Positions 4,871 through 27,512 of a DNA stretch of 37,779 bases are shown in pieces (position 1 is the stretch's first letter; the number at the start of each line of letters is the position of its first letter). Both the position numbers and the translations under genes were made by a program. Origin of the DNA: a virus. Its lineage: Duplodnaviria; Heunggongvirae; Uroviricota; Caudoviricetes. The DNA lies in IMG/VR virus record IMGVR_UViG_3300042009_000020, positions 1-37,779 of that record, one strand, 5' to 3'. The notes beneath the pieces were generated by a model. That model searched no databases. It worked only from the letters and a program-made list of their open reading frames with translations, and was not told where the DNA came from.

Positions 4871-4892
4871 AGCCCCTTAAATGGGGCTTTTC
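4871..4892 (+). terminator. intrinsic terminator closing the early block
   Basis: AGCCCC-TTAAAT-GGGGCT then TTT. Confidence 0.8.
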
Positions 4893-5420
4893 TATGTATG
4901 TCGCTATTCTATACGAATGTGTCTCAATAACGTCTAGACTGAACTGCCTGTTCAAAGGTATAATGCCTTTATTCCGCCGGTAGCTACCGGCGAAGGCACT
5001 ACTAGAGAGAGCAGGAAAGAGTGGGGATAAACCCCACAAGATAAAGAGTATGTATTAAAGAACTAATATTATAACGTATAACGTTATAGAGTAACTATTG
5101 TTATGTATACATAACAGGCTATCATATCAGATATAAAAGCAGGGTTGTCACCCCTGTTCTCTTCCATTGTATGCGGTAGCATACCCTCTATAACCTCCTG
5201 CAACACCACTCACTGCGTAGCAGTGTAGCACCCCTACTATGGGCATAGCCCATCATATACCTCTTCTCACAAAGCCTTATAGATCATGGCTTATAAGCCA
5301 TAACACATACCGATCATGTCGTAATAACGACATGAATAGAACATATTCACATATATGACTATTCTCGGGTATGCTGAACATTGGGACAATAGTCTAAGCA
5401 TCCATAACTAAACATTCACG

Positions 5421-5436
5421 TGTTCCACGTGGAACA
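5421..5436. promoter_or_regulatory. parS: chromosomal-type parS (ParB-binding) palindrome
   Basis: Perfect 16-bp palindrome TGTTCCACGTGGAACA, matching the parS form known from Pseudomonas; general consensus TGTTNCACGTGAAACA. Confidence 0.8.
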
Positions 5437-5460
5437 ATAGTAATTCTTTTATACATAAAA

Positions 5461-5479
5461 GATAATGATAGCCATTCGT
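5461..5479. promoter_or_regulatory. Fur-box-like site
   Basis: GATAATGATAGCCATTCGT, 14/19 to GATAATGATAATCATTATC. Confidence 0.35.
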
Positions 5480-5687
5480 ATCTACGTCATTCTGACGAAA
5501 GGTAGTGATATAGTTAGACATTCAGCCTAGACAGGCGTAGTATGTGTGTTATGGGTGATGAGTCTGTGCAATGCAGACAGATAGAGCCAGTCACCTAATC
5601 CAAGCCAATCGATAGAGAAAGCCTTCCCGGAGAGTGACAGGGAAGGACCACGAGCTGTACGCATAATAGGTATTATGTTAAATTGCA

Positions 5688-5706
5688 TTGAATGAGAATC
5701 ATTAAC
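5688..5706. promoter_or_regulatory. Fur-box-like site
   Basis: TTGAATGAGAATCATTAAC, 14/19, core AATGAGAATCATT. Confidence 0.4.
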
Positions 5707-5740
5707 ACACCATTCGCAAGGGTAATCAGCTGAATGGATA

Positions 5741-5756
5741 AGCAAGTTGTGTGCCA
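5741..5756 (-). promoter_or_regulatory. sigma54 (-24/-12) consensus site
   Basis: Minus strand TGGCAC-ACAAC-TTGCT matches TGGCAC-N5-TTGCW. Confidence 0.55.
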
Positions 5757-5900
5757 TGTCATAGGGATTCGAGAAAGATATCGACGGGTGGTAGCTCGTG
5801 GAAGTCCGGGGCGTTAAACCCATTTACTCTATATCCAGAGTAATAACCCATTCGATCAATATCTGAGGATTTCAGGTAGTTGAACACCTAACGAATAGGG

Positions 5901-5976
5901 ATTTTTGGGAAGTGGATTTACAGGGAAAAGTGTAAATCAGGGAATTGAAAATACAGGGGAATGGAATTTTGGGTAA
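5901..5976. repeat. ~16-bp periodic GGG(A) array
   Basis: GGG runs start at 5907, 5923, 5940, 5956, 5971; the three central copies read CAGGG(G)AA. Confidence 0.55.
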
Positions 5977-5999
5977 AAAGAAACCCTCCGAAGAGGGTT
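5975..5999 (-). terminator. intrinsic terminator closing the leftward block
   Basis: Minus strand AACCCTC-TTCG-GAGGGTT-TCTTTTT. Confidence 0.85.
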
Positions 6000-8242: not shown

Positions 8243-8502
8243 TGACTACCACCGCAGTAGTTCTCACCTTCAAACATCTCACTGAGTTCACAGTCAGGTT
8301 GATAACTCTTACCACATGATCGACAAGTCATAGACCACCCACATTCACGAGCAACGTCGTTCATGAATTCAATCTGTTCAATAAATTGGTATTTCACATT
8401 TCTCTCATCGTATAACTTACCAACAAGATCAAACACAAGTTCACCTTGTGGTGCCAATGCTGCACCTTCAAGGAATGTTTGTATGTACTCTTCTCTTTTC
8501 AT
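8227..8502 (-). CDS. hypothetical protein with C-terminal Zn-ribbon-like motif
   Basis: CRSC...YCGGSQWC. Confidence 0.6.
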   Translation of the reverse strand: MKREEYIQTFLEGAALAPQGELVFDLVGKLYDERNVKYQFIEQIEFMNDVARECGWSMTCRSCGKSYQPDCELSEMFEGENYCGGSQWCTP

Positions 8503-8939
8503 TAAATACTCTCCAATTCAATTACTTTTCCTTCGCTGATGTCTACCCGTTGTGGTCCACAAGTGTGCTCTTGCCAAAACTTACCAACCAAGTGACGTAG
8601 TTCCTTGAACTCTTTACCCCACGGACCAGTGATTAACAATGTACGGCAACCATTACTCTTGGTAATCCGGTGATAGCTGTCTTTAGGAATGAATAACAAG
8701 CGCTTACGACTACGTTTCAGTGGAACAATCTGACCATAGTCAATAATCTCTTCCATGTAATCACCAGACAACAGAATACTAACCGCATTGAATGCATGAT
8801 TGTGGAATCGATCCTGATCACCAGTAGTTGGATGGAAATTGAACAACTTGATGCTGAAGAATCTCTTCCATTCAAGGATTGTCAACTCTGTAACTGACTG
8901 ATCACCAAGGTCAATCGTCTTTCGTTTCCAGAACGCCAT
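8502..8939 (-). CDS. cupin-fold protein
   Basis: RFHNHAF...LLSGDYMEE...YHRI cupin metal motifs. Confidence 0.65.
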   Translation of the reverse strand: MAFWKRKTIDLGDQSVTELTILEWKRFFSIKLFNFHPTTGDQDRFHNHAFNAVSILLSGDYMEEIIDYGQIVPLKRSRKRLLFIPKDSYHRITKSNGCRTLLITGPWGKEFKELRHLVGKFWQEHTCGPQRVDISEGKVIELESI

Positions 8940-11518: not shown

Positions 11519-12136
11519 TCAGTTAGTTACATCAAACTCTTCGTATACAACCCAACCACCTTCGGTTTCTGGTCCTACATTGTCGATCACATAAGCACCA
11601 GCTTTAAAGTAGAAGGGATAAACGTTCCATCCGCTGTCTACATCGAGCCCATAGTACGATTCATTAATTGTAACATGTAGAACACCATCACTCCCCATTA
11701 CAAGACTGTATTCAAAGGCTTCACCAAGTGCACATGGAACAGACAATACTTTGGTTGTCGGACTAGTGGGTGTAACTCTCAAATCAACCCGTGCAACTCC
11801 GTTCCACCATGTAACCATTAAGAAGGGGTTAGGTGCTTTACTCGCATGAATTTGACCAACAATCACTTTACCACTACTTGGTGCCAATTCAACTCGCACC
11901 TTAGCAAACATTGCATGTAGATAACCATCGGCTGTCCAATTGTACGGTTCACTTGACTCGGGAAGTGTCTGACGACTCTCTGTGCGTGGACTACTACTTG
12001 AACCAGATGTATCACCTTGTACAGAACACCAGTAGTTGGTGTGTCCTTTAGGATCTATCCACACTAAATCAGATGGTGGCTTCTCTGGATACAAATAAAC
12101 TTTCCCATGTGCTGTTATGTTGCCGAAAATGTACAT
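11519..12136 (-). CDS. polysaccharide lyase family 7 (alginate lyase-like)
   Basis: PRTESR, GQIH, YFKAGAY match PL7 motifs RxELR, Q(I/V)H, YFKAGxY. Confidence 0.8.
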   Translation of the reverse strand: MYIFGNITAHGKVYLYPEKPPSDLVWIDPKGHTNYWCSVQGDTSGSSSSPRTESRQTLPESSEPYNWTADGYLHAMFAKVRVELAPSSGKVIVGQIHASKAPNPFLMVTWWNGVARVDLRVTPTSPTTKVLSVPCALGEAFEYSLVMGSDGVLHVTINESYYGLDVDSGWNVYPFYFKAGAYVIDNVGPETEGGWVVYEEFDVTN

Positions 12137-27483: not shown

Positions 27484-27512
27484 TTGACAAAATAATGATT
27501 ATCATTTAGAAT
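27484..27512 (+). promoter_or_regulatory. terL promoter containing a Fur box
   Basis: TTGACA 27484-27489, N17, TAGAAT 27507-27512; spacer holds AATGAT-T-ATCATT (15/19 to Fur consensus on minus strand). Confidence 0.75.

Follow-up and report, generated by a model that had tools for sequence, protein, structure and literature searches.

Host-type parS, dif, Fur-type and sigma-54-type sites in the predicted terminal repeat of a virulent Pseudomonas myovirus

The gene-free zone 4893–5975 of the window is very probably the junction of the two ends of a linear phage genome, with its central part, 5397–5815, as the direct terminal repeat. Four kinds of site are carried within the predicted repeat: parS, a XerC/XerD dif-type site, Fur-type boxes and a sigma-54-type box. 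The sites are present, conserved and of host consensus, and no cognate phage protein is detectable; every action of a protein described below we infer from the sites. On balance, the repeat appears to be a landing pad where host proteins would act in cis on the phage's own ends. Binding by at least XerCD and ParB is likely. Catalytic joining or resolution by XerCD is possible and rather doubtful. Features of the zone and its borders are listed in Table 1.

Table 1. Features of the gene-free zone and its borders, in window coordinates.
Feature	Position	Strand	Basis or remark
GC-rich terminator-like hairpin closing the early plus-strand block	4871–4888		scored on the minus strand; plus-strand T-run follows
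Sigma-70-type promoter directed into the zone, not part of the predicted repeat	4935–4964	+	10/12 match
Array of about 10 short inverted repeats with compensatory changes	4975–5335		fold and covariation
Predicted direct terminal repeat, ~419 bp	5397–5815		homology to SYP end repeat
Host-type parS, perfect palindrome, putative ParB loading site	5421–5436		consensus match
Fur-type box 1 (14/19)	5461–5479		consensus match
Weak sigma-70-like promoter candidate within the repeat, facing dif	5515–5543	+	9/12 match
XerC/XerD dif-type site, 28 bp, 11-6-11	5656–5683	+	arm match and conservation
dif, XerC arm	5656–5666		
dif, centre TAGGTA	5667–5672		
dif, XerD arm	5673–5683		
Fur-type box 2 (14/19, dyad core), 4 bp past the XerD arm	5688–5706		consensus match
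Sigma-54-type -24/-12 box facing back to dif	5741–5756	-	GG/GC with exact spacing
Conserved motif across the predicted right repeat limit, candidate terminase cut signal	5802–5819	+	0.92 identity, partly circular because the motif doubled as search anchor
G-rich, C-poor tract immediately beyond the repeat	5895–5975	+	conserved in relatives
Intrinsic terminator closing the minus-strand block	5982–5999	-	terminator prediction

Genome, gene-free zone and predicted ends

The window (37,779 nucleotides) opens a complete, circularly permuted virus record of 107.3 kb (G000) and covers its first 37.8 kb. The encoded terminase large subunit shares 78% identity with that of phiPMW and 70% with that of vB_PpS_SYP (SYP), both Pseudomonas phages. 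The virus is a phiPMW/SYP-like virulent Pseudomonas myovirus of 107 kb; SYP is reported to be virulent (PMC10580904). Small plus-strand genes with strong sigma-70-type promoters form an early block that extends to 4851, and a minus-strand gene block runs down to 5998. Flanked by these converging blocks, as in the gene order of the family, the zone is alignable end to end with IMG/VR relatives, phiPto-bp6g, phiPMW and SYP. A rhizosphere contig from a second study (2025; run X2) covers 5336–5985 over 650 bp with zero differences.

The initial annotation described the interval as gene-free, with both flanking operons terminated before it, and both statements hold. The sole sizeable open reading frame (5527–5823, minus strand, 98 aa) is broken by stops or frameshifts in all relatives, and its coding reading was rejected for this reason. 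Terminator-like hairpins close both blocks ahead of the zone; in relatives, hairpins like the left one follow the early genes. A 39-aa 'major virion structural protein' annotated on the homologous stretch of phiPto-bp6g (L002:5328-5447) crosses the dif region. This annotation is unsupported and probably spurious; the 26-kb record resembles a fragment of a phiPMW-like genome.

The record of SYP starts and stops inside the homologous zone and has an exact 351-bp end repeat. Both limits of this repeat align to the window, at 5397 and 5815, giving about 420 bp, limits taken from the GenBank record of this one relative and not from reads of the window's phage. The SYP paper (PMC10580904) yielded no match for termini or PhageTerm. 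The SYP end repeat contains parS, Fur-type boxes and dif. In the rV5-like E. coli phage HdK5, dif lies inside a 459-bp end repeat; the window segment 5649–5709 also matches rV5-like coliphages and in HdK5 falls inside that same repeat. In Klebsiella phage DP, a dif-like match is located within the annotated 514-bp repeat. KPP-1, of the same subfamily as DP (Vequintavirinae), has a read-confirmed 514-bp direct terminal repeat (PMC9862379).

The SYP record terminates within the homologue of the end motif at the predicted right limit. Loci L266 and L270 and most of the metagenome matches to this motif are without dif and parS; L266 and L270 were dropped because they do not align past the anchor. 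A 13-kb repeat is not suggested by contig depth (691–748 for the early arm vs 869 for the zone-spanning contig), depths that, at one value per contig, cannot reveal a 0.4-kb repeat. The two ends of G000 overlap by 127 bp, which resembles an assembly k-mer overlap rather than the biological repeat.

Host-type sites in the predicted repeat

Three dyads had been noted initially in addition to the regulator sites, and all are present. The dyads at 5485–5497 and 5825–5842 are unconserved (mean identity 0.53 and 0.43 vs 0.54 for the zone). The third, at 5662–5677, is the inner part of the 28-bp dif-type site. The right arm of the site is the XerD arm and the left one the XerC arm. The XerD arm is identical to the chromosomal dif arm of seven Pseudomonas genomes; the XerC arm has 8 matches to Pseudomonas dif among its inner 9 bases. 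The 11-6-11 layout is as described in PMC7062461. Single copy in the phage genome. The XerD arm is the top-conserved 11-mer of the zone (identity 0.98 vs the zone mean of 0.54), and the XerC arm is less conserved (0.70). Every phage site retains the XerC arm's inner TAA and a spacing of exactly 6 bp. The centre is variable, differs from that of the host at 3 of 6 positions in the window's phage, and is unlike the host centre in all 19 phage sites listed. Retained in 10 of the 10 clade sequences; not found in PAK_P1, Amme-3, ventosus and XD2. Dif-like matches occur in about 400 phage records of the BLAST list, including Vequintavirinae, Barba phages and known Xer-exploiting elements. KOPS are absent near dif and number 2 in the whole genome vs 3.3 expected (107 kb); a KOPS adjoins dif in G001 only. 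Canonical FtsK activation is therefore without support. No matches to DnaA, IHF, CRP/Vfr, FNR/Anr and matS consensus sites were found around dif.

The parS first noted at 5421 was verified as letter-identical to parS2/parS3 of P. aeruginosa, and none of 2000 dinucleotide shuffles of the zone yields such a site. It also equals the perfect parS of three Pseudomonas genomes. In P. aeruginosa, parS2 and parS3 are the ParB sites of highest affinity (PMC4368675). The window's parS is 235 bp from dif; 6 of the 10 clade sequences have a parS (up to one mismatch allowed) no more than 300 bp from dif. In whole-genome scans, clusters of 2–5 sites were seen near the convergence zone in SYP, phiPMW, G001, G002, G005, G008, Amme-3 and ventosus, and reversed-pattern controls gave zero. 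No parS was detected in G007, M1, VCM, PAK_P1 and Barba5S. Perfect parS was found in 0 of 6 phages of enterobacteria; to our knowledge, enterobacterial hosts are without ParABS. The site is real and optional, present in some lineages only. Profile searches (PF02195, PF13614) detected no ParA or ParB in the phage genome, controls being detected, and a ParABS partition system of a plasmid-prophage was rejected on this ground. Likewise, no tyrosine or serine recombinase and no sigma-54 activator were detected in the genome, with controls detected.

Further parS observations are as follows. A second perfect parS (G000:C1:106902-106917) lies 5.7 kb off in the early arm, where it forms the end of an early gene and is closely followed by a terminator hairpin; the placement is the same in SYP (963) and phiPto-bp6g. 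The rV5-like coliphages HdK5 (L417, 6884–6899) and nomo (47311) share a single-mismatch parS-like 16-mer, which in HdK5 sits inside a 143-codon open frame and is probably due to chance. Pseudoalteromonas phage J2-1 (L410/L411) has three perfect parS, two of them about 6 kb from its single dif-like site.

The two Fur-like boxes reported at 5461 and 5688 are borne out: each matches the 19-bp consensus at 14 of 19 positions, and two such sites occur in 0.8% of the shuffles. Matches of this quality number 7 genome-wide vs 4.3 expected. In G002, L264, L271 and Pto, an equivalent of box 1 precedes dif by about 190 bp; in SYP it is closer. Box 1 lies about 35 bp upstream of the weak sigma-70-like candidate, in a zone that is gene-free. 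The hexamers of that candidate have like counterparts at equal spacing in several relatives, as judged by eye only. The core of box 2 is at the same position in 7 of the 10 clade sequences, and HdK5 has a 14/19 box at the same offset from dif.

A consensus sigma-54 site on the minus strand, without a gene to drive, had likewise been proposed, and agrees with the data: the match is full, is reproduced in 0 of 2000 shuffles and has no conserved open reading frame to serve. Neither a phage-encoded activator nor an IHF consensus was found as a partner. The box is situated 51–108 bp past the dif start, on the same strand, in 7 of the 10 clade sequences and in HdK5. The window and HdK5 share one order: dif, then Fur at +32, then sigma-54 at about +90 on the opposite strand. 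Only a spacer of 5 bp yields matches, other lengths give 0, and 2979 of 3000 permuted motifs give 0.

Conservation of motifs above their flanks, a check set out initially, was seen by column for the XerD arm and the end motif and was not seen for the parS, Fur and sigma-54 boxes, because these shift position or turn over. These three were instead assessed as motif classes, by counts set against permuted controls. Of 16 dif-bearing phages, 9 have the Fur core (19 sites; 0.07 expected per region), and permuted cores never reach more than 4 phages. A sigma-54 box with varying spacer letters follows dif within 130 bp in 9 of the 16. The counts are not independent trials, since the relatives share ancestry.

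Two features elsewhere in the window had been assigned to the same strategy. The 'sigma54 cluster' at 1156–1277 is incomplete: the gap between early genes has five TGGCA half-sites (1157–1276), all of the -24 kind, of which one has GC at the correct distance and none is a full consensus. The Fur box at terL is real here (27491–27509, between -35 and -10), the spacer of the terL promoter (27484–27512) being filled by a 15/19 match; it is absent upstream of terL in phiPMW and SYP. Outside the window, some 12.7 kb from the repeat, the early arm has at its far end a second gene-free gap (G000:C1:99520-100220). This gap has no dif; it contains a sigma-54 box of full consensus (99931), a Fur core (99731), a KOPS (99963, one of the two in the genome) and minus-strand G-rich tracts. 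The matching gap has sigma-54 clusters in phiPMW (8495–8649) and SYP (11811–11978), including a head-to-head pair 19 bp apart, and in Amme-3 and ventosus. In PAK_P1 (L253:7903-8837; record 67902–68836), five sigma-54 boxes are present in the convergence zone, without dif or parS.

Proposed action of host proteins in cis and rival readings

In the preferred reading, virion DNA would carry the repeat twice and so present two identical dif sites in direct repeat, a substrate for XerC/XerD. The host XerC/XerD may circularise the genome or resolve its multimers, and the phage-specific centre would disfavour integration into the host dif. Host ParB, perhaps with SMC, may be loaded by parS onto the end and the adjoining early arm, as an optional add-on. 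Beside the XerD arm, Fur and sigma-54 would be roadblock, architectural or accessory proteins and not gene drivers. Points against the in-cis model include the lack of KOPS near dif. Dif is missing in some relatives and parS in others, so neither is required group-wide. Homologous recombination could join terminal repeats without Xer. Sigma-54 and Fur boxes cluster also in the second non-coding gap, which has no dif. It is improbable that the repeat would be a phage-built Xer recombination unit combined with a mini-centromere, with FtsK-free end joining or multimer resolution by XerCD, Fur and sigma-54 as accessory proteins and ParB alongside.

According to one rival, unlikely overall, phage proteins duplicate and cut the repeat, guided by promoter, hairpins and end motif; Fur and sigma-54 gate transcription across the ends, and XerCD is a non-catalytic cap or barrier. 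Consistent with it, a conserved promoter and covarying hairpins lie outside the repeat, a conserved motif spans the predicted cut, and the sigma-70-like and sigma-54 boxes face each other inside the repeat. The -35 and -10 boxes of the outer promoter are retained in 8 of 8 aligned sequences and are near-consensus in L264, L271, SYP and G002. The adjoining array has a fold z of -5.8. Both sides have changed in 24 of its 68 pairs (0 of 500 shuffles; slid controls 4–13), a count biased in favour of the structure, which was drawn from the window itself. G-U pairs of the array favour neither strand (10 vs 12), which makes hairpins at the DNA level as likely as RNA; the array may equally be a DNA cruciform or single-strand signal or a structured RNA. 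The Rfam search of the zone matched no family. In T7, a promoter and a hairpin just outside the terminal repeat take part in end duplication; in the in-cis model as well, the promoter and array may serve end duplication or packaging in a T7-like manner. The missing KOPS and the greater degeneracy of the XerC arm relative to the XerD arm also fit a non-catalytic role. Against this, a cleavable site would be expected to keep the XerC arm's inner TAA and the 6-bp spacing, as every phage site does, and parS is left unexplained.

The initial annotation had seen in the zone a docking or decoy island for host regulators. Docking is in keeping with motif classes kept far above chance and with the lack of phage cognates; decoy is not favoured. 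In the decoy reading, amplified phage copies soak up Fur, sigma-54, ParB and XerCD, iron uptake is derepressed, host segregation is disturbed, and the position at the ends is incidental. Each of the four site types is host-consensus and recurrent; SYP has five distinct parS and several Fur and sigma-54 boxes; sigma-54 boxes are clustered in two gene-free gaps of phiPMW, SYP, Amme-3 and ventosus. Infection by PAK_P4, a distant relative, upregulates pyochelin, pyoverdine and heme uptake genes (PMC5563952). However, about 90% of host mRNA decays rapidly in these infections (PMC5563952), and PAK_P1, a genus-mate of PAK_P4, is without a Fur core in 33 kb including the convergence zone. Titration is unlikely because the repeat has 1–2 sites of each kind, with no arrays in the window's genome, because the sites keep a fixed order around a recombination site inside the predicted repeat, and because the 1156–1277 cluster and the terL Fur box are incomplete or unconserved. 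A sponge needs no fixed order or strand around dif, yet both are seen in Pseudomonas and E. coli phages.

That the motifs are sites of phage proteins, or look-alikes in a dyad-rich, AT-rich end, with host proteins uninvolved, is very improbable. Dyads with arms of at least 6 are in excess in the zone (35 vs 3.2 in shuffles), the Fur matches reach just 14 of 19 with a small genome-wide surplus, and the parS-like 16-mer of the rV5-like coliphages occurs in an open frame of phages whose host is without ParB. The parS and the XerD arm are nevertheless exact host sequences, and the sigma-54 box has exact spacing with free spacer letters. Consensus sites of DnaA, IHF, CRP, FNR and matS are without matches in the same regions, and cognate phage proteins were not found.

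Gokushoviruses and CTX-type phages integrate at the host dif through host XerC/XerD, without an integrase and often with centres unlike the host's (PMC7062461, PMC5357621), and they appear in the same BLAST list. That the window's dif is likewise an attachment site is most improbable given the virulence of relatives (SYP), the position in a terminal repeat of a linear genome of 107 kb, the divergent centre and the lack of a prophage of the clade among the loci examined.

Comparison with known systems and significance

The predicted repeat resembles those of the Vequintavirinae (KPP-1, 514 bp; HdK5, 459 bp; DP, 514 bp) and of SYP (351 bp) in being gene-free and placed between converging blocks, and in holding dif, Fur-type and often sigma-54-type boxes in 350–510 bp. 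It differs from the enterobacterial Vequintavirinae repeats by its perfect parS. The KPP-1 paper makes no mention of dif or Xer (PMC9862379). With chromosomal dif of Pseudomonas and other Gammaproteobacteria, where XerC/XerD/FtsK resolve dimers, the phage site shares the 11-6-11 layout, the identical XerD arm, the near-identical inner XerC arm and one copy per unit genome. Unlike chromosomal dif, it has a centre off at 3 of 6 positions, no KOPS nearby and Fur and sigma-54 boxes alongside, and it is predicted to occur twice, in direct repeat, on linear virion DNA.

A phage-borne dif-like site, the lack of an integrase and presumed use of host XerC/XerD are shared with CTXphi, VGJphi, TLCphi and enterogokushovirus EC6098 (PMC7062461). 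Those phages are small, temperate and integrating, whereas the window's phage is large and virulent, with the site in a terminal repeat; the XerD arm is variable in relatives of EC6098 and invariant in the window's clade. Bacillus phage phi29 is likewise virulent and has several host-type parS sites, without its own ParB and with host Spo0J (PMC2731898). Its parS serves spore entrapment, whereas Pseudomonas is non-sporulating and parS here is both in and beside the terminal repeat.

Plasmid cer and psi employ the accessory proteins PepA plus ArgR or ArcA. The phage site is like them in placing a Xer core beside sites of host global regulators and in the prospect of direct-repeat recombination; accessory sequences of cer and psi are on the XerC side, whereas the candidates here are Fur and sigma-54, the nearest on the XerD side. 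Plasmid Xer sites with accessory proteins are treated in 10.64898/2026.02.23.706985.

Short terminal repeats are known already, as are phage integration through host Xer (PMC7062461, PMC5357621) and the presence of host parS in phi29 (PMC2731898). New in the window are the co-location of all four sites and an order common to phages of different host genera. The literature search, mostly confined to papers outside subscription, turned up neither a paper that places dif in a terminal repeat of virulent tailed phages nor an account of one repeat combining parS and dif with Fur and sigma-54 boxes.

With four host proteins and their exact sites named, the handling of ends after injection by virulent myoviruses with short terminal repeats becomes testable. 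As a practical use, dif together with the end motif may predict the genome ends of uncultured members of the phage group. If the in-cis model is true, the use of host Xer would reach from small temperate elements to large virulent phages, the use of host parS from a sporulating host to Pseudomonas, and Fur and sigma-54 may have a non-transcriptional role. In the improbable case of a Xer recombination unit with mini-centromere, the dif-Fur-sigma-54 order common to Pseudomonas and E. coli phages would represent an old and widespread route of circularisation and DNA positioning in virulent phages.
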